From Bacteroidota bacterium (GTDB lineage: Bacteria > Bacteroidota > Bacteroidia > JAADEI01), in contig JALWYU010000047.1 in assembly GCA_026992635.1 (NCBI GenBank), positions 1 to 59,852 on the forward strand: 59,852 bases of DNA, written 5' to 3'. Both the position numbers and the translations under genes were made by a program. Of the stretch, positions 16,801-49,143 are shown one piece after another. Position 1 is the stretch's first letter. Every line of letters begins with the position of its first letter. The notes beneath the pieces were generated by a model. That model had not been told where the DNA came from. It searched no databases and saw nothing but the letters and a program-made list of their open reading frames with translations.

Positions 16801-17470
16801 TTTTCTGGAGGCGTTCAGAGATGGTTCGGTGAATCGTCTGTCTTAACCTGATGGGTTTGTTCAAAAGTGATGCGGATATTGTGATGAATGTGGGGTGGGC
16901 GGTCCACAGGTAGGCGTTGAGTAATCGGCTGGCGGAAGGGAGGTCTGTCTGGTGTTGGGGGGGTGCGATGACCAGTGCCCAGATTGTTGCGTCCTTAGTG
17001 GTTTGCTGCTGTTTTTTGGCTTTTTTTCGTTGGGAAGCTTTGGCGGGTTTGGTGGTTTGTTTGTTTTTGGGTTTTTCGCCGCCGTTGAGTCGCTGTACGA
17101 AGGCATGCCATTGGCTTGGAGAAGTATTCCAGAGTGTGTGGATTTTGTCGCGGAGTGCGGCGAGGCGCATTGCGCAAGCCACCTCGTGATAGCAGAGCAG
17201 GTTGTGGGTAGCCTGTGGACAGTTGCATTGTAAGGAGAGCAGATAGTGGTTGTTGTTGGTTTTTACGATGATGCCATGAATGACAAAGTCTTCATTGAAG
17301 GGGTAGTACGATTGGGCGTAGGCGACGAACTCTAATTTCTGTTTGGAGCGCTGTCGGAATTTGCCGAAGCGAATGGTTTTGGGGGATACGGAAGTGAGCA
17401 CATTGCGGAAATTGTCTTTACCCACATGTGTCTGGAGTTCGTGGAGGTCCAGTGGGCATTTGTAGATCAT
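13865..17470 (-). CDS. SNF2-family helicase with N-terminal SWIM zinc finger
   Basis: 1201 aa. The SWIM motif is CNCPQATHNLLCYHEVAC. Helicase motifs are LADDMGLGKT, DESSAM (DExx), and the C-terminal LKAGGFGLNLTAADYVIILDPWWNPAIERQAADRTHRVGQ. Confidence 0.9.
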   Translation of the reverse strand: MIYKCPLDLHELQTHVGKDNFRNVLTSVSPKTIRFGKFRQRSKQKLEFVAYAQSYYPFNEDFVIHGIIVKTNNNHYLLSLQCNCPQATHNLLCYHEVACAMRLAALRDKIHTLWNTSPSQWHAFVQRLNGGEKPKNKQTTKPAKASQRKKAKKQQQTTKDATIWALVIAPPQHQTDLPSASRLLNAYLWTAHPTFITISASLLNKPIRLRQTIHRTISERLQKNELPKTLFPPDQNTLANIHKPQRFFQTVLQFFQEHNLSEEKGIPRTEFAHFLYTLLNAMTSNDWIPVFLHKQLLPVTEEETKHHRLLIFQPFHDFFLFSQIIAVHLGKDPNGKHFFTFERLLLKISSAFLSKILHPLSSHPKGYTAAYLLSESRLHPHRLIVAHPIFGNKTSNPLTQHLGKIIPEDEFINIIRTLGQKKRDIDNITFMNPDTNLIFKVIESETPTARLYLELHNNKLHARLRFQYGPVEVDFQNQNQYADIIKHNDRFYIVIRDLSAEKRIYRKLTSNKETGLTYARRDRNYLLPVRSSIPPITFLEKHIPQIAKLGIDVFCPEDLIQQLNPTPPQVHITLSKPGSGIDWLQLAGTITWQLPNNQTASIDLIDALNQWKALKDKPEKYLQLADGSRKTIHPTLQQLLEQLELLIQNGNRIHQHNTPLLELLHKASDLVTLHWKTQTTTYLARYEQLTKIQQLPHYPLPKHFHGTLRPYQKEGYYWLRLLYDHQLGGILADDMGLGKTVQVLAFLASLREEKHPEHPDLIVVPRSLVHQWQAEAHHFTPHLRITLYDGSSRQSLNLQNTDLIITTYGLVRNDIHHLKQHTFHCLILDESSAMVKQWTSKTAQALLQINAQFKLALTGTPIENSLNDLWTQLSLLMPGILGTHRVFSKLFLSAEQKIKKGTATRHTTRTLETLRHYIQPLILRRTKDMVLKELPPRTEHTILCTLPPDHQTFYQKTFHHFQQTVRHLLQTKNLHEARMQILNALLRLRQAAIHPKLLDDTYSGASAKFDQLHILLPDIIAEGHKVLIFSSFLKTLELLTTLLKEHGWNYVTLTGQSTPKQRQQAIHTFTTDPNTPLFLLTLKAGGFGLNLTAADYVIILDPWWNPAIERQAADRTHRVGQQKPVFIYRLIAKDTIEEQVLQLQQRKQHLFNLLITERPSSRTWQSLSTDHLHELINLLLSTPQQNTTEKQEENQPELAKP

Positions 17471-17599
17471 GGCAGGCGATTCTTGTTGTTGCCGGGTCAG
17501 TCTGTTTTTTCAGATAAGTTAAAGCCGGAGGGAGAGGGAACTTTTATTGTGATCCAAGGTCTTTTTGAAAAAGAGAGCCGGTTTAAAAATGGAGGAGTC

Positions 17600-17782
17600 A
17601 TGTGTAACGTAGGGAAGGTGGATCGTGTGGTTCGTGCGGTGATGGGGTTGGGGTTGCTTGGGCTGGGTGCGTACTTGAAGTGGCACTGGTTACCGTTGGT
17701 GGCGGGTGGAGTGTTGCTGTTGACGGCGGTGCTGAGTTTTTGTCCGTTGTATAAGTTGTTTGGGTTGAGTACGTGCAGGTAG
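17600..17782 (+). CDS. DUF2892/YgaP-like small membrane protein
   Basis: 60 aa beginning MCNVGKVDRVVRAVMGLGLLGLGAY and ending LSFCPLYKLFGLSTC, preceded by GGAGGA 5 nt upstream. The ORF-track start at 17426 is an upstream extension. Confidence 0.6.
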   Translation: MCNVGKVDRVVRAVMGLGLLGLGAYLKWHWLPLVAGGVLLLTAVLSFCPLYKLFGLSTCR

Positions 17783-17801
17783 GGGTTTTTGTGGGCTGGG
17801 T

Positions 17802-17891
17802 TGGCGTGGGCGTTGGGCGCTGGCTTGCAGGGAGTTGTGGCGCCGTACGGCGCCACAACTCCCTGCAAGCCAGCGCCCAACGCCCACGCCA
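17802..17891. repeat. Perfect 90-bp palindrome (two 45-nt arms with no spacer)
   Basis: I paired every position i with 35693-i from 17802 to 17891, and all 45 pairs are Watson-Crick. The centre is GGCGCCGT|ACGGCGCC. The outer arms contain tandem GGCGT(T)G units. Confidence 0.95.
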
Positions 17892-17912
17892 GAAAAGAAA
17901 AATCCCAAGAAT

Positions 17913-18860
17913 ATGGTTTTGTGGACACTTCGCTGGCAGGGTAATGTTTCGGTAGCGACTTTGGTGGCTTTTGGAGTCGGATTGATTTTCGGGTTGGCTG
18001 CTTGTCAAGGTGGGTCGGAGTCGAGTGCTGAGCAGCAGAAGGAGGGTGGTTCCTCGTCTTCGGAGGCGGTATCGCAGGGAGGCAAGGCTGGGCATATCAT
18101 TTCTGGTGAAGAACGGTATGTTCCGTTTGAATTGCGTGAGGAGCCGGTCTCGCCTGAGCAGCTCTGTGAGATTTTGGATGGGCTGGTTTTACCGGAGGCG
18201 GTAAAGCAGCTGTTGATGGAAGGGATAAAGGTTTCGCAGTCGGATTATTGTGCGCGGATGAACAATGGGCTGAAGACGAACCAGCTGCCGATACCGGACA
18301 TAATAGAAGAAACTTTTCAGAGCATTCGGAAGCATCATCCTGAATTGCTGGTGTATGCGCGCACGGAGTGGACGAAGCAGGTGGAGGTTGCCCAGGCAAT
18401 CATATTGCGGTTTATTCGGTTGCCCAATTTGATGGTGGAGATTGTGTTTGTGCCGCAGGGTTTGTCGTCTGTTGTGGAGGCTGAGGTGAAGGTTTTGCAT
18501 GATCTGAATGCGGATAAAATCTGGAAGTACGATTATGTGGTTGGCGTTTTGGAGCCTGTTGCGCAGGAGATTGCCAACCAGTTGAAATTGCAGCAGCAGC
18601 CCATACTGCGCTCGTATGAGAATGGCGCGATTACTTACACGTATTCGGTGCCACCGGATCAGCAAACTGATCAGCTGGTTGCGCAGCTCCGTGATTATTT
18701 AGAGCGGACGGGCTGGCAGAATATTGACTATGCGTCTATGATGGGTGTCACTGCGCTGGAAGCAGAAAAGGAGGGTGTAAAGTTGACGATGGGTGATGTG
18801 AGGGACTTGATGCTGCAAAGTAATGCGATGTTTACGTTTGTGTTGCAGGTCAAGGAGTAA
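17913..18860 (+). CDS. Hypothetical lipoprotein
   Basis: ATG 17913 gives MVLWTLRWQGNVSVATLVAFGVGLIFGLAAC, a signal peptide with an LAAC lipobox, followed by a Ser/Gly/Glu-rich linker. The ORF-track start at 17835 lies inside the palindrome. Confidence 0.6.
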   Translation: MVLWTLRWQGNVSVATLVAFGVGLIFGLAACQGGSESSAEQQKEGGSSSSEAVSQGGKAGHIISGEERYVPFELREEPVSPEQLCEILDGLVLPEAVKQLLMEGIKVSQSDYCARMNNGLKTNQLPIPDIIEETFQSIRKHHPELLVYARTEWTKQVEVAQAIILRFIRLPNLMVEIVFVPQGLSSVVEAEVKVLHDLNADKIWKYDYVVGVLEPVAQEIANQLKLQQQPILRSYENGAITYTYSVPPDQQTDQLVAQLRDYLERTGWQNIDYASMMGVTALEAEKEGVKLTMGDVRDLMLQSNAMFTFVLQVKE

Positions 18861-19475: not shown

Positions 19476-21233
19476 TTATGGGCAAGCTTGCTGTAAAGTC
19501 CCATGTGTACCGGCTGTACCAGAGAAATTGTAGGTGTTGACGGTGGTGCTGGATGGGAGAGCAACGTTGCTGGGCGAGACGGGCCAAGTTGTGATGTATG
19601 AAGCCGATTCACTGAAGCAACCCGAAGTACATGTTGTGCTGCCATCAGGATTCAGGACAATCACCAGGAAATCCGTACTGCCGTTGCCAAAAGAAGTGGT
19701 TCTTCCTAAGATAACAATGCGCTGGTTACTGGTTTCACCGATAGTAATGCCCTGATCATCACCATTTCCGCCAATGATTCTTGCCCATTTGAGGTTTCCG
19801 TTGGCATCCAGTCGGGCAACGTATACGTTATTACCGCCTTGTGTTCCTCCATTTGTAGTTGCTGTGACTAAAATGTCTCCATTAGAAGCAACGTAGCCCA
19901 TACCGGATGAATAGGAGGGTAACCATTCGGAGGAAGCGGCGGTTGCGCCTAATCGTTTTGCCCAAATGACATTTCCGGACAGGTCTATCTCTATGACTTT
20001 GATATCGCTGGATTCAATGCCTGCTGCAACGATATTACCGTTTGGGGCTTCGCCCAGCCAGTAGAAGGTTCCGCTTCCGTATTGCTTACACCATGCTGGT
20101 GAGAGATTCGCGTCGTACTGACAGATGTGTCCGTTGACACCTGCTGTGAATAGAGTACCATTCGTGTGTTTCTTTACTGCCCAGGGTCGGCTGTAAGAAA
20201 AAGCGGCTGTGATATTGATTGTAGAGAGATCCACTATAATCAGCTGTCCGGAAGCATCACCCACTGCGATTTTGTTGTTACCGAGGTACTCTATCGTTGT
20301 ACCCCAGGATATTGGATCCAGATAGTAAGTGTTTCCGATTGTATTGCCCGTGTTTGCATTGATTCTTACAAGGTAGTTACTCCATCCTCCAATGCCTATA
20401 GGGATCCATCCGGTTATGACATAATATCCTGCAGGTATTTTCTCTATACCTACAGCGGCATCCCAAGAGCCGTAGTCCATGGTGTATGTCCAATTCACTG
20501 TGCCTGTTGTGAGATCAACCTTGGCTACATATATATTTGTGCTGCCCGAACCACAAGAATTGCATTCACCGATCAGGACAGCATATTGTCCATCAATCAT
20601 ACCTGTATAGAGGAAGTCTTGTCCGGAGCCACCGATTGCCAGGCAGTATCCAATGCAAGAATCAGCCGTCACAGAAAGAGAAGTTGCCATACCGCATCCA
20701 CACTGGTTGCACACTTGAACACCAATTGTTCCGTCAGTTGTATCCGGTAAGACTTGCAGGGTTGCAGTACCTTGTCCGTTCAGCATTGTCCACCCAGGAG
20801 GCGTTTGCCAAAGGTATGTTGCTCCACCAGGACAGTCGCTTACTGTATACATGATCGTATCCCCGGTACAGGCAAAGGAGGGTCCATTAATTGTAGGTGT
20901 ACATGTGGGCGGCTGGCACAGTCGTGGGCAGGAGATGGTGTACCATTGATGTGTGAGCGTGTCGTAGACTTCTAAGCAGAAGGAGTCAATGTTGAAGATG
21001 ATGAGGGTGTGATCAGGGTTTTGAATAGCATTGCGTTGCTGTGTGGTGAGACGGGGTATAAGAAGCCCGCGTGAAGTATCCTGAAGTTCTAAGAGGGCAG
21101 TGGGTGCAGGATTTGTAGTGCCGATGCCGACGTTTTGTGCGAGGGTGGGTTCAGTCAGGCATGGGTAGAGCAGAACAGAGAAGAGAAGAGAAGAGAAGAG
21201 TAGAGTAGAGTAGAGTAGAGTAGAGTCTCCTGC
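19476..21233 (-). CDS. Secreted-protein paralog 1: shared N-terminal module plus Cys-rich linker plus propeller-like repeat domain. It currently has no in-frame start codon (phase-OFF or a pseudogene).
   Basis: My translation upstream of the track ORF (M at 20852) stays open to the TAA at 21234-21236. It reads AGDSTLLYSTLLFSSLLFSVLLYPCLTEPTLAQNVGIGTTNPAPTALLELQDTSRGLLIPRLTTQQRNAIQNPDHTLIIFNIDSFCLEVYD.... There is no ATG, GTG or TTG in those 127 codons. Confidence 0.7.
   Translation of the reverse strand, partial: AGDSTLLYSTLLFSSLLFSVLLYPCLTEPTLAQNVGIGTTNPAPTALLELQDTSRGLLIPRLTTQQRNAIQNPDHTLIIFNIDSFCLEVYDTLTHQWYTISCPRLCQPPTCTPTINGPSFACTGDTIMYTVSDCPGGATYLWQTPPGWTMLNGQGTATLQVLPDTTDGTIGVQVCNQCGCGMATSLSVTADSCIGYCLAIGGSGQDFLYTGMIDGQYAVLIGECNSCGSGSTNIYVAKVDLTTGTVNWTYTMDYGSWDAAVGIEKIPAGYYVITGWIPIGIGGWSNYLVRINANTGNTIGNTYYLDPISWGTTIEYLGNNKIAVGDASGQLIIVDLSTINITAAFSYSRPWAVKKHTNGTLFTAGVNGHICQYDANLSPAWCKQYGSGTFYWLGEAPNGNIVAAGIESSDIKVIEIDLSGNVIWAKRLGATAASSEWLPSYSSGMGYVASNGDILVTATTNGGTQGGNNVYVARLDANGNLKWARIIGGNGDDQGITIGETSNQRIVILGRTTSFGNGSTDFLVIVLNPDGSTTCTSGCFSESASYITTWPVSPSNVALPSSTTVNTYNFSGTAGTHGTLQQACP
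21172..21225. repeat. Pentanucleotide tandem repeat: 4 x AGAAG then 5 x AGTAG on the + strand (CTACT/CTTCT in the gene sense)
   Basis: Counted directly: AGAAG x4 at 21179-21198 and AGTAG x5 at 21199-21223. The tract encodes the hydrophobic core of the signal peptide of paralog 1. Confidence 0.95.
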
Positions 21234-21291: not shown

Positions 21292-21628
21292 AATTGGCTT
21301 GTTTCATGGCTGTTCTGGATTTTGGGGTCGGCTTTGGGTGAGGTGCGTGAGGACGAGTTTAGAGATAAGTTATGGAGTCCCGGGGAAAATTTTTGTAGTG
21401 GAAGTTGAAGGGGATTTTGTGGAGTAGCAGGTTGTGCTGTGTGCGAGTGGGAGGGGTGCATGCTGATTGGGAAGTACAATGTGTGGGGTATAGGAAGGGC
21501 AAGGAATATTCTCTACTGGGAGAAAAAATGCTCTATGGCTGGGGAACGTGAGAAAGTTCCCAAAATTGCGTCTAGTATATATTACTGTGTATAAGCTATT
21601 TGCGAAAGCCTTCATGATTTCCTGGATT

Positions 21629-22696
21629 TTATTCTTCCCTTTCCCGAGAACCAAGCAGTTCATTCAGTCGGGCACAAACGCGCCGTCGTTGAAAAGGTTC
21701 TGAAGATTGCGGAGCACCCGGCACAGTGGATTGCGCAAGAAACCGACGCATCTGACGAAATAGACTCTCCACAGGATTGTTCGTGTAGATCAACCGGCGA
21801 ATCTCAGGCGGATAACGCAAATGTACTGTCAGGGCTTGAAACCGCTGTTACAACGAGCGCACAATGGAAGGATAGGTCCGTCCATATTGCTGGACAAAGG
21901 TTTGCAACAGTTGATGCGCATGCTGTGGGTTGTCTGCTTCAATCAACATTTGCCGTAGCAGGTTGCTTATGCGTTTTCGGTCTTGCTTACGGACTTTCGC
22001 TAGCCATTGCCGAAGCATGTGCAAAACACACAGTTGGTGCTGTGCGCCGGGAAAAACCTCAGCAATGACTTCGTCCAGTCCAGGCAGTCCATCAGTTACA
22101 ATGACCTCTACGTGTTTCAGTCCACGCTGACGAAGGCGCTCCAGCAATTCGCGGTAGCAATCCTTTTGCTCGCCATCGGCAACCACCACCTCAAAGTCTG
22201 CCACCTGCCTGTAGCCTTCATAGTTCAGAATCACCGCTACAAGCACTAAACAGGGCACGACCGTTTTCTGATACCACAGACGGATGCGGGCGGCATCTAT
22301 CCAAAGCGCAAAGGCTTTCTGTGGAAGTGCACTGACCCGAAAGCCCAGAATGTATTCCATCACTTCTATGATTCTGCGCCGGGAAAGCCCGGCAGCAAAC
22401 AATGCTAAGAAGACTGTGCTGAGGAGGTTCGTCATTCGTTGCCACCTGGGCGGAAGTAGTGATGGATAGAACTGTCCGGAGCGTGTTCGGGGCACACGCA
22501 ACCCTTCCACTTTACCCAGTTCGTCGTCCAGGAGTGTGCGTTCGTAGTAGCCGTTACCTCTGTCTTCGGGATGTTCTTCCAGCCGTTCTTCCCGTTCCTG
22601 GTTCATGGCTTTTTCCAGGGCTTCCTTAGCGATTTGTTGCTGTTGCTTTCGGATTTGCTCCTTAACTTGCTTATAGGTGAGTTTTGCTTTTTTCAT
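21629..22696 (-). mobile_element. IS256-family (Mutator-type) transposase gene, inactivated by one in-frame TAA and shorter than usual
   Basis: The N-terminal ORF (282 aa) has GLRVPRTRSGQFYPSLLP, WIDAARIRLWY and VIVTDGLPGLDEVIAEVFPGAQHQLCVLHMLR. The stop at 21848-21850 is in the same frame as the downstream QRFQALTVHLRYPPEIRRLIYTNNPVESLFRQMRR. The region between the RSGQF and DA motifs looks truncated. Confidence 0.8.
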
Positions 22697-22736
22697 GGTT
22701 TTTGGATTTTGGAGTTTGCTTTTTCATGATTAAGAT

Positions 22737-22776
22737 GGGGAGGAAACCCGAAAGGGAGAGGGAGGGTTTCCTCCCC
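22737..22776. repeat. 13-bp perfect inverted repeat (GGGGAGGAAACCC / GGGTTTCCTCCCC) with a 14-nt loop, just upstream of the IS256 transposase start
   Basis: The arms are 22737-22749 and 22764-22776, read directly. On the + strand it is followed by TCCTTTTC. Its function is unknown; it could be an IS end or a terminator. Confidence 0.6.
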
Positions 22777-22825
22777 TCCTTTTCAGGAATGTTGCTGGCA
22801 GACAGCATGTTATGCCAGGCTCTCC

Positions 22826-23145
22826 CTGACACAATTTTTGAAACACTCCCAGTCAAAGGACAACCTCCACCCCTACAAGAAATCCAATTCCCCAGCCAAA
22901 AGCCATCTTTCCCCAATCAACGGGCAATTTTTCCCCTCTGAAAAGCAATTTTTCCCATCCAAAGGGAATTGTTTCCCTTACAAAGAGCATTTTTCTCCAA
23001 CCCAAAAGCAAACTCCACCCCTCCCAAAACCAAATTCCCCACTCAAAGCACATTCTTCCCCCAGCCAGAAAGTAACTTTTCCCTTCTAAGGGGCAACCTC
23101 TTCCCTCCAAAGTGCAATTTTTCCCTTTTCAGCCACATCACACCC
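22826..23145 (+). repeat. Array A: about 14-15 tandem degenerate 20-23-bp units, consensus roughly a.cCAAAag.cAAtTTTTCCCc
   Basis: Example units are aatcaacgggcaatttttcccc, tctgaaaagcaatttttccc, atccaaagggaattgtttccc, agccagaaagtaacttttccc and tccaaagtgcaatttttccc. No single reading frame stays open across the array. Confidence 0.8.
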
Positions 23146-23575
23146 TCTACCGCATCTGCACAAATAATTAGATCCCACAAAAATTCCCCTTAATACCCCC
23201 AAATTTTCTCCAGGACTGCTTAACTTATTCCTGAATCTCCCCTGCGTGCCTCATTCAAAAGAAACACGGGAAACTTAGGATATCATGAAACCAGACAAAT
23301 TTTCCCCCACCCACGCAAATAGATTTGCCAAACAAGCAATCAACGATCCCTTGGCATGTAGTCCCATTCTGGTATACACACCGAGAGACTTTCTATAGCG
23401 GGTTTCAATTTATCCGACGAAGAGTCTTTCATAGTCGCTGTACTTTCTGGTAGTCTGAGGGAGTGAGCAGGATAGTTCTTCCTTGTGTTGCTTTTTCGCT
23501 TAAATAGTGCGCCATTCCCACAACTTCCGGAACAATTCCAAAAAATAGGCGCCAGAGAAAATTGAAGTTAGCACA

Positions 23576-24136
23576 TTGAATTTGACCATAAACGAACACC
23601 TGAAAAATCATAGAGCCATGAGGAAAATGGGTTTGCTGGCTACCGCATTACTCAGCTTGCTTGGACAACATGTTGTCGCACGTGTCGTTTCTGTAGAAAT
23701 TGAACTCCATGATTCATTACAGTACCAAGTGCCATGCAAGGGATACAGGAGAGTAATTTGCTCCGAAGAGGACCCACGAGTGGTTCTTTGCATTGGCTGC
23801 GGAAATCTTGCGTGTTGTGCCAGCGCAATTATCCATCCCAATTCAAAACTCATGCTGTTGAATGCGCTGGAGCACATCAAAGCGACCAGCACGGATTATA
23901 TTTTTGCAAATTTGGTTTCGGAAGCAATTCAGCAAGTAGTTCAGGGACAACTCAACGGCAGATTACTATATATCCCGCCTGAAGCAAATATCAGTGAGCA
24001 TGAAGCGTTAATGCTGTTTGATAGAGCATTAAAGGGTGAGGAGGAAGCAAAGCAAATGCTTCAGGAAATAAGAATCAGGATTCTCGCGTGGGCTATTCGT
24101 GATAACAAAATTTTCATCAAAGGGTGGGAACAATGA
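23576..24136 (+). CDS. Hypothetical secreted protein (orphan). The likely start is ATG 23618 (MRKMGLLATALLSLLGQHVVA).
   Basis: It has a signal-peptide-like N terminus, a Cys cluster (CIGCGNLACCASA) and a helical C-terminal half. The DNA is AT-richer than its surroundings. It overlaps the next ORF by 13 nt. Confidence 0.5.
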   Translation: MNLTINEHLKNHRAMRKMGLLATALLSLLGQHVVARVVSVEIELHDSLQYQVPCKGYRRVICSEEDPRVVLCIGCGNLACCASAIIHPNSKLMLLNALEHIKATSTDYIFANLVSEAIQQVVQGQLNGRLLYIPPEANISEHEALMLFDRALKGEEEAKQMLQEIRIRILAWAIRDNKIFIKGWEQ

Positions 24137-25656
24137 GATTTTCAATTAGCGCATGTATTCTCGCATGGGCGGAGCTGCTGACCAGCTCCGCCCAAACCTT
24201 TCTGCTTTTTAGCGAAAAAGACCTGCTTAAATATGACAGCACGCAGTGCAATGAAGGCGCATTGTATATCTTGAACCATAAAACGGCCTTTCAATGTGTA
24301 AAAGGAAAACTTTTTCGGCAACAAGGATATGTTTCCTACACTACAATTGCCGATGCAGGAAAGCAATATGCCCTTAGCCAAATCAACGCAGGTATTGATT
24401 CAGGTAAGGTGAAATGGTCAGTCTGCACGATCCAATGGCACAGAAAAGGCATCATCAAATACATAGACGTAAAGTGTCCGGACTCCATCAAATGGACGCA
24501 CGTTTGTCCCCTTCACTTTCCTTGCGGAAACCTCAAGTTTCAATACATTGACAACCAGGAATTGCTCAACCCCGACTCACACCTTCTTTATGTACGGGCA
24601 CTGGAGCCACCCAATCAGCTTTACGCCCTGTCCCTAAAGCAGAATAAGACAGAGCCATTGCGCTATGAGGGTAACCTGTTTTTCTTCAACGGGAAGTACC
24701 CTCTCGCAAAATACAAAATCAAGTTCGCATTCCCGGATTCTGTTTACCCCGACTTATTGGCAGCTCCATTGCTGGTCCATTATGACCCTACAAAGCTGGT
24801 TTTCATCTTTGCGTACGCATTTCGGAAAAGTATCGGGCTTCTCAAATGTGCAACCGATACCTGTCAATGGACAAACATATTTACTACAACCAGGACACCT
24901 TATCTAATTGGCGCATTATCAGGGAAATACCTCTTCTTCTTTGACGACGGCAAGCTGAAATACTTCAATCTAAGCCAGGAAAAAATTCACGAACTGGATT
25001 CATTCCCAACACATATGTACATTTACCTGACCGCTTCCCCCAAAGCCTCTTACTGGTGCTCGTGGTGCAGGCGCTACCAGCTCTGGCTGATCAACCCCTT
25101 TGCCGGAGTCCTATACAGATACGAGTTCAAAACAAAGAATGCAGAAAACGAACTTCTCAGCAGCAAAGAGATTTACATTTTAGACTCCAAAATTTACCAC
25201 AGCTATGTGAGCAGGCAAAACGAAGTAGATTCTGTATTCGCCCACGTCCCAGCATTGTGTGATGCCCAGCGCATCGCTGGAACAATCACGAGCGGAAGTC
25301 TTTTTCTGAGAGGAGTCCTTTCTGACAATACCATTTGGATATCTATGCAGAAGACGGTATTTCCTTGCGATAAATTCATAACACCCGAAAAGATTCATTA
25401 CGAGGAAATCATCCGTCTTGACCATGACTCACTGCGAAGATTCAGGACTGCCCACGAAAAAGACTGCTGGAAAACCGTAACGGACGATATGGATGAATTA
25501 TACAAATACCTGGTTTTCAATGTAGATATCGCTCCTATGCGACTGACAGAGCGCAACCAAATAATAGAGGTGTATGCGACAAACATCCTGGAATCAGCAG
25601 TAAACAAAACCACAGGAATATTGAAACGATTTCATATTCATATTAGCATGTTTTGA
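24124..25656 (+). CDS. Hypothetical secreted protein (orphan, 510 aa)
   Basis: A long uninterrupted ORF in AT-richer DNA, with the N-terminal signal-like sequence MRFSISACILAWAELLTSSAQ. I recognise no family. Confidence 0.55.
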   Translation: MGTMRFSISACILAWAELLTSSAQTFLLFSEKDLLKYDSTQCNEGALYILNHKTAFQCVKGKLFRQQGYVSYTTIADAGKQYALSQINAGIDSGKVKWSVCTIQWHRKGIIKYIDVKCPDSIKWTHVCPLHFPCGNLKFQYIDNQELLNPDSHLLYVRALEPPNQLYALSLKQNKTEPLRYEGNLFFFNGKYPLAKYKIKFAFPDSVYPDLLAAPLLVHYDPTKLVFIFAYAFRKSIGLLKCATDTCQWTNIFTTTRTPYLIGALSGKYLFFFDDGKLKYFNLSQEKIHELDSFPTHMYIYLTASPKASYWCSWCRRYQLWLINPFAGVLYRYEFKTKNAENELLSSKEIYILDSKIYHSYVSRQNEVDSVFAHVPALCDAQRIAGTITSGSLFLRGVLSDNTIWISMQKTVFPCDKFITPEKIHYEEIIRLDHDSLRRFRTAHEKDCWKTVTDDMDELYKYLVFNVDIAPMRLTERNQIIEVYATNILESAVNKTTGILKRFHIHISMF

Positions 25657-26181
25657 GAAAAACAAGTTTTGAATACCATTAAAGCACTAAAGCATTCACC
25701 AATTAAACCTGATCTCCAGACCCAACCTCTCTAACCATCAATCTTCCCCCGTAGAACACCGCCACTCCAACCAGCAAGCAACTTTACCCCTTCTAAGCCC
25801 CCTGCTTGACCAGGTCATCACGCACCCAACTAAAAAGACCTTCCAAAAAACTTTTGACAAAGAGATCAGTGTCCCTTCCCAAGGCGTCTACCTCCCGCCC
25901 AAAAACCACCGACTTAATTCATTGTCCTGACCCACGCTTTTGCTGGAGCAACTGCCGGATTTTCTCAGGATGGGCAGGTAAACTCCACCTAAACCCCTAA
26001 ATTAATCCACATGATATAGAGTTTTTCTTCGGATCTGCAAGGAACTTTCCATATGGATTGTTTGTTTTCTCTATCCGAAATAGCCCATCATGACAAGGCA
26101 TTTGCCAAAATTTAATCCCCATGAAAAGAGAAGAACAATTCCCCACAACCAAAACCCAAGCATCTCCGTCCCGTCTGGGCG

Positions 26182-27621
26182 TTGAACTACTTTGAAGAAG
26201 TCCAGAAACTGTATCCGGATAAGAAACTGCAACTCAAGTACGTGAATGGTTCCTGGCATGTCCATGCCTACCAGAGCTGGTGGGACAAAGAGAAGAAACG
26301 CCCGGAGAAAACAGAGGAGTATCTTGGCACTATCAAAGAGGACGGTTTTCACCCACGCAGAAGGAGGTATCCCGGGCGGAAAAAGGGAGTGGAAATGGAG
26401 AAGGTAGAGGGGAGACTGATCGTTCGGGAGCGCAGTTGCGAATATGGCGCCAGCCAGGTATGCAGGCATTTTCTGGAGGGAGCCTTAGAGGGTTTGAAGG
26501 ATCAGATAGAAGAAGAGCGTGCGAAGGCGCTGGTGGGATTGGCGGTGCTGTGGGCTGTACATGGGTATGTGCCCCTGAAGAGGGTGGCGAGTGTGTGGGA
26601 GGACACGTGGTTGAGCCGGATGTGGGAGGAGGTGCGCATGGATGGCAGGAGGCTGTCGGAGTTACTGAGGCTGGTGGGCAGGCGAGTGGGGTTGCGCGAC
26701 CACGTGTGCGGCTACTTGCTTATGCGTTCTGGCAGTTCACGGATTCTGTACGACCTCACGCATGTGTTCACCTATTCAGAGGGTGTGCTGGATGGTGAGT
26801 ATGGCTGGAACGCAGAGAGGAGGTATGCGCCGCAGGTGCGGGTGAGTGTAGTCCATGATGGAGAAGGAGTGTTTCACATAGAGGCGTGGGCGGGCAGTCA
26901 AAGGGAAATAGCGGTGTTGAAGGCGTTGAAGGAGGGGCTGGAGCCTTATCTGGAGCGCAAGCAGGAGCTGGTGCTGGTCAGCGACAGGGGCATTGCCTCT
27001 TACCAGATGGCGGTAGATCTGCACCAGGAGGGGTTGAAATTTGTGATGCCTTTGCGCAAAAACTTCAGTATCATAGACTACATGCGAAGTTTTGGGGGGC
27101 ATTTCGCTATCAAGACAGACAGAGTGATTGCATGGAGTGAGCGAGAGGTGGAACTGCACGGCAACAAGATGCGTCTTTTGCTGTTTTGGGATACGAAACT
27201 TGAGGGAGAGCAAAAGCAGATGTGGCTGAACAGATACGAAAGAGGGGAGTTGGGCAAACAGGATGTGGAGGAGCGTTTTGTTCAGTGCGGGAAGATAGCC
27301 CTACTCACCAACACTTCTTTTTCTGCCGAGGAGGTATATTCGCTCTACAAGAGTCGTGCCTCCATAGAGGAGTGCATACGCCGTTTCAAAGACGCCCTGA
27401 ACATGGAAGGCACATATATACGCGACGACCACGCACTGGCTGGCTACTTCTTTGTGCTCTCCCTTGCGATGCCACTATGTGCTGATGCAAAAGCTAAGGG
27501 ATACCAAATTGCTGAAGCACTACAGTGTACAGGATGCCATCTGGGAGTTGAGAAAAATCCGGAAGGAGCCATGGATAGATGGCTGGCATCTTCGTCTCTT
27601 TACCAGAAGACAAAACCTTGA
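26182..27621 (+). CDS. IS4/IS1634-family DDE transposase (TTG start). The C-terminal end is possibly frameshifted.
   Basis: DDE candidates are ILYDLTH, LVSDRGI and the Y-x2-R-x3-E-x6-K signature YKSRASIEECIRRFK. After about 27478, alternative frames read ...LLKHYSVQDAIWELRKIRKEPWIDGWHL and LIEKLGLRTILGIN. These look like the usual family C terminus, which suggests one or two frameshifts. Confidence 0.8.
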   Translation: MNYFEEVQKLYPDKKLQLKYVNGSWHVHAYQSWWDKEKKRPEKTEEYLGTIKEDGFHPRRRRYPGRKKGVEMEKVEGRLIVRERSCEYGASQVCRHFLEGALEGLKDQIEEERAKALVGLAVLWAVHGYVPLKRVASVWEDTWLSRMWEEVRMDGRRLSELLRLVGRRVGLRDHVCGYLLMRSGSSRILYDLTHVFTYSEGVLDGEYGWNAERRYAPQVRVSVVHDGEGVFHIEAWAGSQREIAVLKALKEGLEPYLERKQELVLVSDRGIASYQMAVDLHQEGLKFVMPLRKNFSIIDYMRSFGGHFAIKTDRVIAWSEREVELHGNKMRLLLFWDTKLEGEQKQMWLNRYERGELGKQDVEERFVQCGKIALLTNTSFSAEEVYSLYKSRASIEECIRRFKDALNMEGTYIRDDHALAGYFFVLSLAMPLCADAKAKGYQIAEALQCTGCHLGVEKNPEGAMDRWLASSSLYQKTKP

Positions 27622-27674
27622 TTGAAAAACTGGGGCTGAGAACAATCCTAGGGATTAATTGACGAGATTGGGTT

Positions 27675-27981: not shown

Positions 27982-29832
27982 TTAAGGACAGATGTTGGTG
28001 AGTGTTCCGCCGGAGGAGGTGGATCCGCCGGAGCTGGTGGTGCCGCCTGAGCTAACTGTGCCGCCTGAGCTGGTAGTTCCGCCTGAGCTGACGGTTCCGC
28101 CTGAGCCAATCTGGCATCCGCCGGGACAATTTACTAAGTTGCCCTGGGCGTCAAGTTTGATTACGTAAATATCGTTGCTGCCAGCGCCAAAGGAGCTGGT
28201 ATACCCTGCAATGGCATAACCGCCGTCATTCGTCTGGATGATGGAGTTGCCCCTATCATTGTTTGCTCCGCCAATAGTTTTTGTCCACTGGAGAGTGCCG
28301 GAGGCATCCAGTTTTATTACATAAACATCGCCGCCAGCGCCAAAGGAGTTGGTATACCCTGCGATGACATAACCGCCGTCATTCGTCTGGATGATGGAGT
28401 TGCCTCCATCATCGTTTACTCCGCCAATAGCTTTTGTCCACTGGAGGGTACCGGAGGCATCTAGTTTTATTACATAGACATCATAGCCGCCTGCTCCAAA
28501 GGAGGTGGTATATCCTGTGATGATATATCCGCCATCGTTGGTCTGAATGATGGAGAATCCCAAATCGCGAATTGAGCTGCCGCCGATGGTTTTAGTCCAC
28601 TGTAGATTACCCTGCGCATTCAGCTTTACCACATAGACATCGTAGAAGCCAGCGCCAAAGGAGTTGGTATACCCTGCAATGGCATAACCGCCGTCATTCG
28701 TCTGAATGATGGAGTAGCCCAAATCGTTACTTGCCCCGCCAATGGCTTTGGTCCACTGCAGGTTACCGTTTGCATCCAATTTCACGACATAAACATCAGC
28801 ACCATCTGCGCCGAAGGATTGAGTCCGCCCAACAATAGCGTAGCCGCCGTCGGTGGTCTGGATGATGGCTTGCCCCGCATCGTAATTTGCTCCACCGATG
28901 GTTCTGGTCCACTGGAGGTTGCCGTTTGCGTCCAGTTTGACGACATAGACATCGTAGCTGCCTGCGCCGAAGGAGGCGGTGTATCCAGCGATGGCGAATC
29001 CGCCGTCGGTGGTCTGGATGATGGATTGACCATAGTCGTTATTTGCCCCGCCGATGGTTTTAGTCCACTGTACATTGCCTGAGCCATCCAGCTTTACCAC
29101 ATAAACATCCTGCCCTCCCTGCCCAAAGGAGTTGGTATACCCTGCAATGGCGTATCCGCCATCATTCGTCTGGATGATGGAGTAACCAATATCGCTATTT
29201 GTTCCGCCAATGGCAACGCAAAAAGCGTTGCATGAGTCGGCGGAGACGGAGATAGAAGTGGCGTTGGCGCATCCGCACTGGTTGCAGGGTTTGACGGAGA
29301 CCATTCCATCGGTGGTGTCAGGAATGACGCGCAGTGTGTCCGTGCCCTGTCCGGAGAGGATGATCCAGTTGGGCGGGACTGTCCACTGGTAGGTGGCGTT
29401 GGGGCAACCCGAAGCGATGTAGGTGGTGGTGTCGCCGGTGCAGGCGAAGATGGGTCCGGAGATGGTGGGTGAGCAAGCGGGTGGCTGGCAGAGTCGTGGA
29501 CAGGAGATGGTGTACCACTGTTGTGTGAGTGTGTCGTAGACTTCTAAGCAGAAAGAGTCAATGTTGAAGATGATGAGGGTATGTGCGGGGTTCTGGATGG
29601 CGTCGCGTTGCTGAGTGGTGAGACGGGGTATGAGGAGTCCGCGGGTGGTATCCCAGATATCTAAACGAGCAGTGGGTTCGGGATTTGTGGTTCCGATGCC
29701 GACGTTTTGTGCGAGGGTGGGTTCAGTCAGGCACGGGTAGAGCAGAACAGAGAAGAGAAGAGAAGAGAAGAGAAGAGAAGAGAAGAGAAGAGCCCTTCGC
29801 GTATGGAATGTTGTGTATTTGGGGCGGTGTTC
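27982..29832 (-). CDS. Secreted-protein paralog 2: shared N-terminal module plus eight ~47-aa SBBP-type beta-propeller repeats plus an SSGGT(V/T) tail. It currently has no in-frame start codon (phase-OFF).
   Basis: The frame is open from 29832, directly after the TGA at 29835-29833. It reads EHRPKYTTFHTRRALLFSSLLFSSLLFSVLLYPCLTEPTLAQNVGIGTTNPEPTARLDIWDTTRGLLIPRLTTQQRDAIQNP.... The first ATG/GTG/TTG in frame is at 29304. The repeat unit is GGxNxDxGxSIIQTxDGGYAIAGYTxSFGAGxxDVYVVKLDxxGNLQWTK. Confidence 0.75.
   Translation of the reverse strand, partial: EHRPKYTTFHTRRALLFSSLLFSSLLFSVLLYPCLTEPTLAQNVGIGTTNPEPTARLDIWDTTRGLLIPRLTTQQRDAIQNPAHTLIIFNIDSFCLEVYDTLTQQWYTISCPRLCQPPACSPTISGPIFACTGDTTTYIASGCPNATYQWTVPPNWIILSGQGTDTLRVIPDTTDGMVSVKPCNQCGCANATSISVSADSCNAFCVAIGGTNSDIGYSIIQTNDGGYAIAGYTNSFGQGGQDVYVVKLDGSGNVQWTKTIGGANNDYGQSIIQTTDGGFAIAGYTASFGAGSYDVYVVKLDANGNLQWTRTIGGANYDAGQAIIQTTDGGYAIVGRTQSFGADGADVYVVKLDANGNLQWTKAIGGASNDLGYSIIQTNDGGYAIAGYTNSFGAGFYDVYVVKLNAQGNLQWTKTIGGSSIRDLGFSIIQTNDGGYIITGYTTSFGAGGYDVYVIKLDASGTLQWTKAIGGVNDDGGNSIIQTNDGGYVIAGYTNSFGAGGDVYVIKLDASGTLQWTKTIGGANNDRGNSIIQTNDGGYAIAGYTSSFGAGSNDIYVIKLDAQGNLVNCPGGCQIGSGGTVSSGGTTSSGGTVSSGGTTSSGGSTSSGGTLTNICP
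29744..29792. repeat. Pentanucleotide tandem repeat, 8 x AGAAG (+ strand) = CTTCT x8 in the gene sense
   Basis: Counted directly: 29751-29790 is eight perfect AGAAG units, flanked by CAGAACAG and AG. The flanking sequence is the same as at 21171-21178. Confidence 0.95.
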
Positions 29833-30142: not shown

Positions 30143-31558
30143 TCAATAATAGATGACGACTCTGCCATTGCCACCTTTTTGCCCGTAGGTGTAGCAGGCT
30201 GTTGCGCCGGTGCCGCCCTGGGCACAACCTGGGCACAGGTCGGGATCGCCGGCATTGCCTGGTGTGGTGCCGGCTCCGGGCAGGATGATACCTGTTGGAT
30301 TCAGGACGAAGCTGTTTCCGCCGGCGCCGCCTCTGGCGCCACAGTCGCCAGAAGAACCGCTGCATGAGCTTCCGCAGGTGGTTGCCCCGCCGGTTCCGCC
30401 TGCGGATGCGCCGCCGCCCCCGCCTCCGCCGCCGGGTCCGTCGGCTCCACAGCTTGCTCCGGGTGTGCCGGCTGGTGTGGGTGCGGCACCGGTGTTTCCG
30501 CCGGCGGCGCCACAGGCACCGGCATTGCCATTTTGTCCGCCAGCACCGCCATGGCCACCTGCACCGGAGCAACCACTACCGCCGCCACCACCTCCGCCGG
30601 CGGCGGCAACGACCAAGGTACCATTGATAAGGACTGCTGAGCTGCCTCCGCCGCCACCGCCACCCCCTGACCCTCCTGAGGGTCCAGCCTGTCCACCATT
30701 GCCACCGTTGCCATAGCCCCATCCACCTGTTCCACCCGGGGCACTGGAACTACAATACCCGCCATTTCCGCCTTCGCCCACATAAATGGTCAAAGTATCG
30801 CCGGGATTGACTGCGATGGTATCGCTGGCGTAGGCGCCTCCGCCACCGTTGCCACCGGGGTTGCCACCGTCCACGCCGCCTCCGCCACCACCGGCGCCCC
30901 ATGCTTTAATCACAATGCATGAAACACCGTTGGGGACTATCCACTGCTGAGGGGCGCCAGTATAGTCAAAATAAAGCGCCTGGGGTGGTGATGTGGATAT
31001 GGTCAGGCAGGTCTGCGTGTTTGTACAGGAATCTGTGACGCAGAGTTGTCCTGATTGGAATGTGTCAGGGAAGAAGATACGGACGGAATCGGAGCCCTGC
31101 CCTGCTACGAGTATTGCTCCGCCGGAGACTGACCAGTGTTTAGTGATCAGACAGCCCTGCAAGACAAAGAGAAGTGTGTCGGGCAAACAAATCTGTTGCA
31201 GGGTAGTGGGTCCTGTAATGGCGACGGAAGTGCCGGTACATCCCCAGGGTGGAATGGTCACCCATTGCGTGCCATCCCAGTACTGGAACACCCGACAATC
31301 ACGGTTGTAAATAAGCAGGGCATTTGCGGGATTGACAATGGTGTTGCGTTGCTGCGTAGTAAGTCTGGGGATGAGTAGTCCGCGAGAGGTGTCGTGGATG
31401 TCTAGTCGGGCGGTGGGGTCGGGGCTTGTAGTGCCGATGCCTACGTTCTGGGCGAAGTTTACGGGGTTTGTGCAAAGGATTGCGGAGAGCCAGAGGGTAG
31501 TGGTCAGTATGTGGAGTTGTTGTAGAAGGGATGCGTGTGTGGTGTGGGTGGTGGTCAT
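30143..31558 (-). CDS. Secreted-protein paralog 3: shared N-terminal module plus a glycine-rich (GGxGG) C-terminal domain. This copy is intact.
   Basis: It reads MTTTHTTHASLLQQLHILTTTLWLSAILC...AQNVGIGTTSPDPTARLDIHDTSRGLLIPRLTTQQRNTIVNPANALLIYNRD, followed by WGAGGGGGGVDGGNPGGNGGGGAYA...IYVGEGGNGG and long Gly runs. There is no tandem repeat at its 5' end. Confidence 0.8.
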   Translation of the reverse strand: MTTTHTTHASLLQQLHILTTTLWLSAILCTNPVNFAQNVGIGTTSPDPTARLDIHDTSRGLLIPRLTTQQRNTIVNPANALLIYNRDCRVFQYWDGTQWVTIPPWGCTGTSVAITGPTTLQQICLPDTLLFVLQGCLITKHWSVSGGAILVAGQGSDSVRIFFPDTFQSGQLCVTDSCTNTQTCLTISTSPPQALYFDYTGAPQQWIVPNGVSCIVIKAWGAGGGGGGVDGGNPGGNGGGGAYASDTIAVNPGDTLTIYVGEGGNGGYCSSSAPGGTGGWGYGNGGNGGQAGPSGGSGGGGGGGGSSAVLINGTLVVAAAGGGGGGGSGCSGAGGHGGAGGQNGNAGACGAAGGNTGAAPTPAGTPGASCGADGPGGGGGGGGASAGGTGGATTCGSSCSGSSGDCGARGGAGGNSFVLNPTGIILPGAGTTPGNAGDPDLCPGCAQGGTGATACYTYGQKGGNGRVVIYY

Positions 31559-31627
31559 GGTGGTTTGGGATTTGGGGTGGTGGTTGTTAAATAAAGTTAA
31601 GGGGTTTTGGGGGATTTTTGGTTTTTG

Positions 31628-31723
31628 GGGGCGTTGGGGCGTTGGGCGCTGGTTTGCAGGGGGTTATGGCGCCGTACGGCGCCATAACCCCCTGCAAACC
31701 AGCGCCCAACGCCCCAACGCCCC
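31628..31723. repeat. Perfect 96-bp palindrome (two 48-nt arms), same family as 17802-17891
   Basis: All 48 pairs (i with 63351-i) were checked and are Watson-Crick. After one unpaired G (31627), four more pairs follow. It shares the core GCGTTGGGCGCTGG-N-TTGCAGGG-N-GTT-N-TGGCGCCGT with the first palindrome. Confidence 0.95.
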
Positions 31724-31790
31724 AAAACCAAAAAACCAATCCAATCCTCCATAACCCCACACACCTGTAAGTTGGTAAAAAAGTCCAGCG

Positions 31791-32549
31791 GTGTTGTTCA
31801 TGTCGGGCGCGTTCAGGATGTCTTTGCCTTTTCCCGTTGCCTTAGCTGTCCTTACAAAGAATGCGCAACGCACGTTGCCCGCACTCCTGCAACGGATGGC
31901 GCCTCATGTCCAGCGCATTTATATTGGCGATACGGGAAGCAGGGATCAGACAATTCAGATTGCGATTCAGTGGAATGCGGAAGTTTTCGTGCTGGACTGG
32001 CAGGGGTTCGGACCGACCAAAAATGCGTTGCTCGGGCGTGTGCAGGAGCCCTGGGTTTGGGTCCTGGATGCCGATGAAATCCCGCCTGTGCAAACAATTC
32101 AGCAGGCTTATGCACAGATTATTCGGGATCCTTCCCTGTGTGCAGTTTCGTTTGTCCGCCGGCATTATGTTGGCAGGCGCCGTTTCCGGTGGGGGACACT
32201 TAAACCAGACCGACGCATCCGGCTGATCCGAAAAGATGTCTGTCGGTGGACCGATGTGCCAGTCCATGAGGATATTCTTTGCAATGGGAAAGTTTATGTC
32301 TCGTCCATGCACATTGACCACTGGACAGCGTCCGATCTATCTGACTTTATTGAAAAAAATTTGCGATATGCACTGATCCGTCAAGCCACACGCTCGTCTC
32401 CAAAGCGGTTTAGAACGCTTCGGGCAATCTTTCATTTTTGGCGGGATTATCTTTTACGTCTTGGTTGCTTGGAAGGACGCGCAGGTTTCCTCTTAGCGTG
32501 CACGCGTGCTTATTGTAAGTTTCTGGAAAATACCTCTGTCCATGAATAG
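31791..32549 (+). CDS. Family-2 glycosyltransferase
   Basis: Has VLTKNAQRTL, IGDTGSRDQT and VLDADEI (DxD). The likely true start is ATG 31818 (MSLPFPVALAVL). Confidence 0.8.
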   Translation: MLFMSGAFRMSLPFPVALAVLTKNAQRTLPALLQRMAPHVQRIYIGDTGSRDQTIQIAIQWNAEVFVLDWQGFGPTKNALLGRVQEPWVWVLDADEIPPVQTIQQAYAQIIRDPSLCAVSFVRRHYVGRRRFRWGTLKPDRRIRLIRKDVCRWTDVPVHEDILCNGKVYVSSMHIDHWTASDLSDFIEKNLRYALIRQATRSSPKRFRTLRAIFHFWRDYLLRLGCLEGRAGFLLACTRAYCKFLENTSVHE

Positions 32550-47539: not shown

Positions 47540-49143
47540 TTCTGGAGGAATGGTTGGATTTGGCTGGGCGCTTTGTTGAGGTATTTCTTTTCCAGGCGTT
47601 GTATGAACTGGGTGAGGAGGTGGCGTGCGGCGTGTTCCCAGTCTTCGGGGTGTGTCCACTGGGTTCGTGGGTCTAAGATAGCGGTTTGGTCGGCGGGAAG
47701 TGCCGGCAGCTGTGTGGGGATCCGAAAACCAAAATAAGGCAATGTGGTGGTTGGGACTGTATCCAGTTCGCCGTTGATGGCGGCTTGGAGGAGGCGTCTT
47801 GTCAGCGGTAGTGCGATGCGTCCGCACTGAGTGGGGTCTCCCACAATGCCTGTGTTCAATAGCCAGGTTCGGACGCGATACGTCTGGATTTGCTGGAGAA
47901 GGAGTTCGGCGTATTGGGTGTGTGGCAGAGGCATAAAGGGAGCGCCGAAGCATCCTGAGAAGGTGATCTGGGGTTGGGTGATGCCCATTTCTGTGCCGGC
48001 GACCTTAGAGGTGTAACCCAGCAGGAAAAAGATGTAGGCTTCTTCGGGGGTGAGCATAGCGATGGGTGGGAGGGCGCCGTGTGCGTCGTACGTGAGGAAG
48101 AAGATGTTGGAGGGGTGGTCGCCCCGTCCTGTGGCGACGTAGTGGTTGTTGAGGTGTGTGAGGGGGTAGGCGGCGCGGGTGTTTTCTGTTCGCTGGTCGG
48201 AGTCGTAGTTGGGCAGGCGCGTACCCGGGAAGAAGGGTACGTTTTCCACGATTGCGGGGAAGCGAATGGCTTCGTAGATCAGGGGTTCTTTGTTGGGGTC
48301 TAAGTGGATGGTTTTGGCGTAGCATCCGCCTTCAAAGTTGAAGATTCCGTCGGGTGCCCATCCGTGTTCGTCGTCGCCGATGAGCAGGCGGTTCACGTCG
48401 CTGCTCAGTGTGGTTTTGCCGGTGCCAGATAGTCCGAAGAATAGTGCGACGCGTCCGTCTTTACCCATATTGGCGGAGCAGTGCATGGTGAGGATGTTGT
48501 GGTGGATGGGCAGGAGGAAGTTCATGGTTGTGAAGAGGGACTTTTTGATTTCGCCGGAGTAGGCGGTTCCGCCAATGAGGATGGTTTGTTGTGAGAAGTT
48601 GATGATGACGAAATTTTCGTGTGGGACGCCGTCGGTTTTGGGGTTGGCGTGGAAGTTGGGTGCGCACAGGAGTAGCCAGTCGGGTTCAAAGGCGTTGAGT
48701 TCGTCGGGTCGTGGTCGGAGGAACAGGTGGTGGACGAATAGGTTGTGCCAAGCCAGTTCGGTGATGGCACGCAGTCGGAGTCGGTAGCGTGGGTGGGCGC
48801 CCACGAAGACATCGCGGATGTAGAATCGTTTCAGTTGTGCGAAGTATTGTAGCATTTTGTGGAAGAGCCGGTTGAAGACTTCGGGTTCTATTGCCAGGTT
48901 GTTTTCGCCCCAGTCTATGAGGTGTTCGGTGGTGTTGTCGCGTACGAAGAATCGGTCGTGGGGTGCGCGTCCTGTGAATTTGCCGGTGTCTACGTGGAGT
49001 GCGCCCCGTTCGCTCAGCTGCGCTTTTTCGTAGAGGATGGCGTGTTCAACGAGTTGGGCAACGGGCAGGTTGCGGAGCCCTTGTGTTAACAGGGTGTGGA
49101 TAGTTGCGTGGGTACGTGGTTGCTGGTGGTGTTGTGTGGTCAT
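47497..49143 (-). CDS. pckA: Phosphoenolpyruvate carboxykinase (ATP)
   Basis: Has GTAYSGEIKKS, the kinase-1a motif FFGLSGTGKTTLS, and IGDDEHGW. The likely start is ATG 49143 (MTTQHHQQ). Confidence 0.9.
   Translation of the reverse strand: MTTQHHQQPRTHATIHTLLTQGLRNLPVAQLVEHAILYEKAQLSERGALHVDTGKFTGRAPHDRFFVRDNTTEHLIDWGENNLAIEPEVFNRLFHKMLQYFAQLKRFYIRDVFVGAHPRYRLRLRAITELAWHNLFVHHLFLRPRPDELNAFEPDWLLLCAPNFHANPKTDGVPHENFVIINFSQQTILIGGTAYSGEIKKSLFTTMNFLLPIHHNILTMHCSANMGKDGRVALFFGLSGTGKTTLSSDVNRLLIGDDEHGWAPDGIFNFEGGCYAKTIHLDPNKEPLIYEAIRFPAIVENVPFFPGTRLPNYDSDQRTENTRAAYPLTHLNNHYVATGRGDHPSNIFFLTYDAHGALPPIAMLTPEEAYIFFLLGYTSKVAGTEMGITQPQITFSGCFGAPFMPLPHTQYAELLLQQIQTYRVRTWLLNTGIVGDPTQCGRIALPLTRRLLQAAINGELDTVPTTTLPYFGFRIPTQLPALPADQTAILDPRTQWTHPEDWEHAARHLLTQFIQRLEKKYLNKAPSQIQPFLQKWREQLTAASPQPL

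Follow-up and report, generated by a model that had tools for sequence, protein, structure and literature searches.

The targets of protelomerases, for example telRL of phage N15, are long palindromes that are perfect through the dyad, with non-symmetric flanks and weaker outer inverted repeats. REPINs are doublets of REP sequences that form hairpins and are mobilised by RAYT/TnpA-REP, and compensatory changes are common in these hairpins (Bertels & Rainey 2011, PMC3116915). In template switching at quasi-palindromes the nascent strand copies the other arm, so that the repeat becomes "perfect or more perfect" (PMC7202029), and mutations of this kind turn quasi-palindromes perfect in E. coli (PMC7202029; Ripley model, Lovett laboratory reporters). 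In plasmids of E. faecium, indels that occur symmetrically keep large inverted repeats intact, and the perfect inverted repeats of bacteria most often carry a 4-bp spacer (PMC13155455). Palindrome instability grows with arm length, with arm identity and with a short or absent spacer; hairpins form during replication, and long perfect palindromes that lack a spacer are expected to be fragile in bacteria (PMC7999016, PMC4245961).

Here we examine two such palindromes, A and B, in the window, by which we mean the whole stretch of 59,852 nt that was analysed. A spacer-less pair of 90-96 bp is unusual, though not unprecedented in kind, and both members persist despite a strand-asymmetric mutation pressure that is expected to separate their arms.

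Results

Two perfect palindromes with one centre

A scan of all dyad centres, together with a repeat search, identified palindrome A (17802-17891, no strand; 90 bp, dyad between 17846 and 17847) and palindrome B (31628-31723, no strand; 96 bp, dyad between 31675 and 31676). Both are perfect and have zero spacer, with arms of 45 nt in A and 48 nt in B, and both have the same centre, GGCGCC-GTAC-GGCGCC. The earlier note had described B as a perfect 96-bp palindrome related to A, and this description holds. The exhaustive centre scan returned no other perfect palindrome with arms of at least 10 nt in the 59,852 bases; by our own arithmetic, chance would supply ~0.06 of these per ~60 kb, and ~1e-22 with arms of at least 45 nt. 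Moreover, a degenerate arm pattern matches just the four arms of A and B in the window, with no match in 100 shuffles. Folded as single-stranded DNA, B reaches -71.5 kcal/mol (z = -17.8 against shuffles) and A -68.1 kcal/mol (z = -18.0), each as an uninterrupted stem of 43-46 bp. The G-rich 5' arm of each palindrome also fits a G-quadruplex motif (17782-17810; 31627-31663 on the + strand and 31688-31723 on the - strand), the right arm of B being the sole minus-strand motif of this type in the window (loops up to 12 nt), compared with 31 on the plus strand.

The earlier note had named an assembly artefact as one way in which its reading could fail; from the ENA scaffolds and the Logan contig ends we judge the palindromes to be real. 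The window corresponds to two scaffolds of ENA ERZ23491050 (scaffold_3551 and the reversed scaffold_1153), with an IS at the join. Two facts could raise the suspicion of a fold-back chimera, or of an assembler that made the arms alike: scaffold_1153 carries a 10-N gap in B's left arm, and all matching assembly sequences are 100% identical to the window, ENA and Logan being independent assemblies of samples that are perhaps not independent and may be a single one. We nevertheless consider an artefact extremely improbable, because the breaks in two other assemblies of this DNA are those that a true palindrome predicts. A is intact in scaffold_3551, and the ENA contigs on either side of the gap overlap by 7 nt and jointly reproduce B exactly. 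Logan contigs (k=31, run SRR14510437) end 30 nt inside A's left arm and begin 30 nt inside B's right arm; 30 nt is k-1, where the outer edge of a genuine perfect palindrome would force a de Bruijn graph to branch. In addition, the arm core (39 nt, see below) is common to two loci, yet the flanks differ on all four sides, and a shared dyad is not expected from random fold-back chimeras.

When the four half-elements were aligned with their flanks and longer stretches were folded, each perfect palindrome proved to be nested in a longer, imperfect inverted repeat. The extended quasi-palindrome around B (31596-31755, no strand) has 80-nt arms that are 83% complementary, with GGGATTTTT as its outer motif from 31611; within it, the 61-nt arms (31615-31675 and 31676-31734) differ solely by two 1-nt homopolymer length changes. 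In the extended unit around A (17782-17906, no strand), the outer GGGGTTTTT (17782-17790) pairs with AAAAATCCC (17898-17906). The repeat unit measures ~125 bp at A (17782-17906) and 140-160 bp at B, so that the extent given at first was right for the perfect part, while the unit itself reaches further out. On the + strand of the whole window GGG[AG]TTTTT is found at 17782 and 31611 only, 17-20 nt left of the palindromes, and AAAAA[CT]CCC has a single site, 17898, to the right of A; the outer GGGRTTTTT block is common to all four half-elements and is otherwise not seen in the window. Both elements show a gradient, the inner part being perfect and the outer arms decayed.

Differences between the copies are mirrored in the opposite arms

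We compared the copies base by base outward from the dyad (bases given in the order A/B, left arm). The core common to A and B comprises 39 nt per arm (offsets 1-39), two more than the 37 nt first counted, and is 92% identical. It differs at offsets 10, 14 and 23 from the dyad (G/A, A/G and C/T, all transitions), with no difference at offsets 1-9 and 24-39. In B these positions are 31666, 31662 and 31653 of the left arm, and the complements lie at 31685, 31689 and 31698; as the earlier note had reported for these three changes, each is mirrored in the opposite arm of the same copy. Further out, five of the six positions at offsets 40-45 differ between A and B and are mirrored inside each copy, and the outer 6-9 nt of the perfect arms are unlike between the copies, length included, and again mirrored; the 3-nt difference in arm length (45 nt in A, 48 nt in B) is likewise present in both arms. 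A gapped alignment describes these outer ends as one substitution plus a 2-nt indel.

Counted without gaps, 8 of 8 differences between A and B are mirrored. If the arms were independent, and with the positions taken as given, the probability of eight matching base changes would by our own arithmetic be at most (1/3)^8. The core has diverged by 8% between the copies, with no internal mismatch in either, and it is the centre and inner arm that are best conserved between them, the ends (offsets of at least 40, and the outer arms) being most diverged. Judged from their sequences, A and B are homologous, plain independent decay of the arms is excluded and independent arm evolution is not credible, because every A-B difference has its complement in the opposite arm.

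Could each locus instead have undergone a one-off, recent fold-back (inverted) duplication of a solo half-element, the perfection of the arms reflecting youth? Such an event would also yield symmetry through the dyad and copy-specific arm sequences, and snap-back synthesis could start from the short central palindrome GGCGCC-GTAC-GGCGCC (PMC7999016). However, A and B have the same dyad and centre, which would take two independent turns at an identical base; their outer arms are inverted but decayed, which makes the inverted-repeat structure older than the perfect part; and the window contains no solo half-element. We therefore find this origin distinctly unlikely.

The make-up of the stems bears on the level at which the symmetry is kept. 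None of the 93 stem pairs in A and B together is a G-T pair, and the central GTAC, which is unable to pair in a hairpin, is nevertheless symmetric in both. The absence of G-T pairs, the symmetric GTAC and the mirrored length difference argue for a constraint at the level of DNA, not of RNA folding. An RNA-level hairpin, perhaps an RNase III processing or stability site or an unusual terminator, would fit the position of A, 19 nt past a stop codon and inside a probable two-gene transcription unit, as well as the three core differences, all transitions as would arise via G-U intermediates, and the sub-threshold Rfam hits, which are solely to long-hairpin precursors. Against this, RNA folding requires neither the lack of G-U pairs (0 of 93) nor symmetric loop bases; the U-tract after the stem is missing on both strands, with an A-tract 3' in its place; nothing reaches an Rfam gathering score; and B is probably untranscribed at its site, the -7-like boxes lying outside it. 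These putative boxes, of Bacteroidota type and read from the sequence, flank the element: TAACTTTA belongs to the minus strand, TAAGTTGG to the plus strand. On balance, an RNA-level role appears very unlikely.

Two related candidates were rejected. A known structured RNA is one, Rfam 15 at gathering scores giving only tRNA in the window; a permissive search added only generic miRNA-precursor hairpin models, far sub-threshold and equal on both strands. The other is an intrinsic terminator, since on both strands a T-run stands 5' and an A-run 3' of the stem, the reverse of the terminator layout, and B is upstream of both its neighbouring genes. The view taken at first, that a terminator role does not fit, is thus supported both by the order of the runs and by a consensus scan, which found no terminator, and no sigma-70 promoter, at A or B.

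Gene neighbourhoods of the two palindromes

The minus-strand gene to the left of B (30143-31558) encodes a glycine-rich protein of 471 aa that is probably secreted and matches nothing in Pfam or NCBIfam; the gene's ATG (31558) is 69 nt from the perfect palindrome. To the right, a plus-strand gene for a family-2 glycosyltransferase (31800-32549; ATG at 31800, alternative GTG at 31791) opens a sugar-modification cluster. The earlier note had placed B between divergent genes, and its starts agree with ours (ATG 31558, minus; GTG 31791 or ATG 31800, plus). From the dyad of B (31675/31676) the distance is 117.5 nt to the ATG of the minus-strand gene and 115.5-124.5 nt to the start of the plus-strand gene, which nearly centres B in the intergenic space. 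A 118-aa ORF that the source record calls (P0001, 31398-31754, +) overlaps the glycine-rich gene in antisense at its 5' end and continues through B; it is almost certainly not a real gene. In both palindromes, two of the three frames contain no stop codon.

A sits between co-directional genes. On its left, a plus-strand gene for a YgaP-like membrane protein (17426-17782) has its stop codon (17780-17782) 19 nt ahead of the perfect palindrome, the last base of this codon being the first base of A's outer motif. On its right, the ATG of a 315-aa hypothetical (orphan) protein (17913-18860, +) is 22 nt beyond the perfect palindrome. The extended unit nearly fills the 130-nt gap between stop codon (17780-17782) and ATG (17913). 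The contexts of A and B are thus unrelated, co-directional in one case and divergent in the other, and both are intergenic.

The setting of B raises the possibility of a host cis-element that needs dyad-symmetric double-stranded DNA and is kept perfect by selection. It might be a binding platform for a dyad-symmetric oligomeric protein, or a cruciform that extrudes under the negative supercoiling of the divergent promoters; taken jointly, these variants seem to us unlikely, though they deserve weight. The centring of B's dyad in the divergent region (117.5 nt against 115.5-124.5 nt to the starts) would be in keeping with such a role, as would symmetry that continues through the centre GGCGCC-GTAC-GGCGCC, the iterated GGGCGYT-like units in each arm and the better conservation of centre and inner arm between the copies. 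A, on the other hand, lies between co-directional genes 130 nt apart and not between promoters; no regulator gene adjoins; and a mirrored indel, with eight of eight differences mirrored and no intermediate, would be hard to obtain by selection alone. A perfect site of 90-96 bp also far exceeds known operator sites in length.

The surrounding window

The window is ordinary chromosome, with accD, a gene for a FabI-like reductase, sufBCD, lipA, topA, PEPCK, a recF-like gene, tRNA-Met and LptD. It comes from an uncultured, Bacteroidota-like bacterium, with a type-9-secretion sorting domain (Por_Secre_tail) and an LptD of the LptD_2 family. GC skew of the + strand rises to +0.47 whatever the gene orientation. 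At 6000-18000 and 48000-58000 it is +0.37 to +0.47, with AT skew down to -0.42, and the same skew holds LptD (+ strand) and an SNF2 helicase (- strand); between ~22 and 40 kb GC skew drops to ~0 or becomes negative. The helicase, of SNF2/RapA-like type, is a 1201-aa ORF with strong Pfam matches (13865-17470, -) that is left uncalled in the ENA and Logan records, where a string of small + strand ORFs stands instead, probably because the C-rich coding strand misleads the gene caller.

Between A and B lies a 13.8-kb accessory segment (17.9-31.6 kb) with two IS elements, a patch of low GC and negative skew, and orphan genes. An IS256/Mutator-family element (21358-23235) has 35-nt terminal inverted repeats (21358-21392 and 23201-23235), and its transposase gene appears broken, into a 282-aa ORF and a 63-aa C-terminal piece; both ENA scaffolds terminate inside this element. 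An IS1634/IS4-like element (25987-27673) has a 479-aa DDE transposase, which as an exact protein has one public record, while an exact-copy look-up in the public protein collection gave no record of the IS256-like ORF or of P0001. Between the two IS, the low-GC (0.44), negative-skew patch (23576-25656) has overlapping genes for proteins of 186 and 510 aa, neither with a Pfam, NCBIfam or PADLOC match. A 364-bp direct repeat (20857-21220 and 29429-29792, 84.6% identity) lies upstream of two paralogous genes for DUF5122 beta-propeller secreted proteins, and the gene at 27982-29304 has internal repeats that are 74-78% identical (28147-29213).

As to whether B marks the "edge of the accessory zone", an earlier suggestion, we find the case weak: conservation is poor in the genes to its right as well (GT2, acetyltransferase, UDP-glucose dehydrogenase), and low GC skew continues to ~42 kb. 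The palindromes are not IS ends, the termini of the IS1634-like (25987-27673) and IS256-like (21358-23235) elements of the window being unrelated to the arms.

A further reading takes A and B as recombination or resolution sites bounding the accessory segment, whether att-like, for inversion or as targets of a hairpin-telomere resolvase. The contents of the segment (17.9-31.6 kb) invite it, and telomere-resolvase targets are perfect palindromes through the dyad. We rate it highly improbable: GC skew in the segment is mixed and not uniformly inverted, and no recombinase, integrase or protelomerase domain is found in the segment or in the rest of the window. A half-exchange at the dyad would, moreover, give hybrids of an A arm with a B arm, and what is observed is a|a' or b|b'. 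An att-site pair recombined at the dyad was rejected likewise, each site being internally pure where hybrid sites are expected.

The closest database relatives of the window's proteins share 31% identity for GT2 and 26% for LptD, and exact copies are found in one ENA assembly and one Logan run only; the lineage appears to be very isolated. A search for orthologous loci via the neighbouring proteins yielded no comparable intergenic DNA, because these proteins have no close relatives.

Search for further copies

No third copy was retrieved in any collection searched (n = 2), so that of the "family" proposed in the earlier note the homology of the two palindromes stands and members beyond two do not. 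In the window there are two copies in 59.9 kb, both intergenic, and blastn-short and nhmmer found no degenerate or solo copy there. In the GTDB species-representative genomes the central 18-mer TGGCGCCGTACGGCGCCA was hit 89 times, with arms that never exceeded 19 nt, and none of the hits was a family member. Most came from a conserved, unrelated 30-32-bp perfect palindrome of many Streptomyces genomes, GGGCCCTGGCGCCGTACGGCGCCAGGGCCC, which contains the same central 18-mer. A one-arm pattern with a free middle had 19 hits in JGI metagenome contigs, all by chance and mostly in GC-rich sequence; an inner-arm pattern had a single chance hit in IMG/VR; and blastn of the element against plasmids and phages gave no match. 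Finally, the concatenated ORFs of A and B were translated and searched against 5.8 billion proteins, a search aimed at spurious ORF calls over other copies, and matched only the window's own 118-aa ORF.

Discussion

We propose that A and B may be copies of a REPIN/MITE-like foldback repeat kept perfect by arm-to-arm templating at the DNA level. We give this reading nearly an even chance and hold it tentatively, because there are two copies. A and B would be two copies of one non-coding, hairpin-forming intergenic repeat of ~125-160 bp, a foldback element that landed or persisted in two unrelated intergenic spaces. Its inner arms of 45-48 nt would be held complementary by copying one arm from the other, most likely through intramolecular template switching on a hairpin at the replication fork (quasi-palindrome correction), or else through repair within an extruded hairpin. 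A new mutation would then be either erased or passed to the opposite arm, and divergence would build up between the copies (8% in the core) with no mismatch inside either. Copying would reach the outer arms less often, and these would decay by homopolymer slippage.

Several observations fit this scheme. A mirrored indel is trivial for templating, and would take two matching rare events if selection acted alone; the gradient from a perfect inside to a decayed outside is expected if copying begins at the dyad; and the unrelated contexts of A and B are as in selfish intergenic repeats. Moreover, the C/A-rich right arms seem to oppose the mutational bias, the GC skew of the + strand being as high as +0.47, and would be expected to diverge fast if nothing corrected them. 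The earlier note had offered selection for the hairpin or cruciform and templating of one arm from the other as the two options. This was the right pair, and the evidence from the two copies leans towards DNA-level templating.

At the same time, there are just two copies, and both "repeat family" and "mobile" are extrapolations from them; we infer the mobility of the element, as well as template switching as the homogenising mechanism. The window has no transposase of any kind that matches the element, and its scanned ORFs contain no Y1/RAYT, recombinase, integrase, protelomerase or similar domain. No direct repeat that could be a target-site duplication occurs at the perfect or extended boundaries of A or B. 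Conservation is highest at the centre, the opposite of MITEs and REPINs, and B, almost exactly centred between divergent starts, could be functional.

We allow a slim chance that A and B belong to a novel kind of foldback DNA in bacteria, in which one arm is rebuilt from the other as part of the element's own propagation. The rebuilding might rely on hairpin-primed (rolling-hairpin-like) copying, or on an enzyme that makes or resolves hairpins at the GGCGCC-GTAC-GGCGCC dyad, in a host lineage that would be deep-branching, Bacteroidota-like and extremely strand-asymmetric. The arms would then be perfect as a side effect of the chemistry of transposition or replication, and not through selection or generic replication errors. 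Should a genome-wide census confirm the pattern seen here, the elements would be a natural case of concerted evolution of palindrome arms, and a convenient system for setting template switching against a dedicated enzyme in vivo; if just two copies exist, they remain a curiosity.

How does the preferred reading, a foldback repeat kept perfect by templating, compare with described systems? Bacterial MITEs (Correia/NEMIS and others; PMC3184786) are likewise non-coding, 100-200 bp long and built as inverted repeats, and are likewise intergenic, sometimes between divergent genes. MITEs, however, have terminal inverted repeats that match an IS, a unique internal segment and target-site duplications, whereas A and B are inverted repeat throughout, with decay strongest at the ends and no flanking duplication at either site; neither of the two IS in the window matches their termini.

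The resemblance to REPINs includes a non-coding, intergenic unit of ~100 bp, made of two inverted halves that fold as single-stranded DNA into one long hairpin, as both A and B do, with changes compensated in the opposite arm and varied intergenic contexts. A spacer or loop and imperfect stems set REPINs apart from A and B, which have zero spacer and perfect stems. In REPINs, conserved 16-mers lie near the ends and the middle is variable; in A and B the centre is most conserved and the ends most diverged, with no less conserved spacer between conserved ends. REPINs also come in tens to hundreds of copies with a RAYT gene, compared with two copies here and no RAYT in the window.

With telRL-type sites A and B share a palindrome that is perfect through the dyad, non-symmetric flanks and weaker outer inverted repeats. 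Unlike these sites, they are two in number, unrelated in sequence and placed in a housekeeping chromosomal region: the window has LptD, AccD, FabI-like, SufBCD, LipA, TopA, PEPCK and RecF-like genes, and no protelomerase or linear or phage context was found in it.

Template switching is a way in which mutations arise, and not a family of elements. The evidence for it comes from engineered reporters in E. coli and yeast, and not from the long-term upkeep of natural 90-96-bp palindromes. The kind of change is alike: quasi-palindrome template switching makes multi-base and indel changes complementary to the opposite arm, and the mirrored pattern of A and B, eight of eight differences plus the 3-nt length difference, is as a pattern just this. 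The simplest explanation for the lock-step evolution of their arms is a known replication mechanism.
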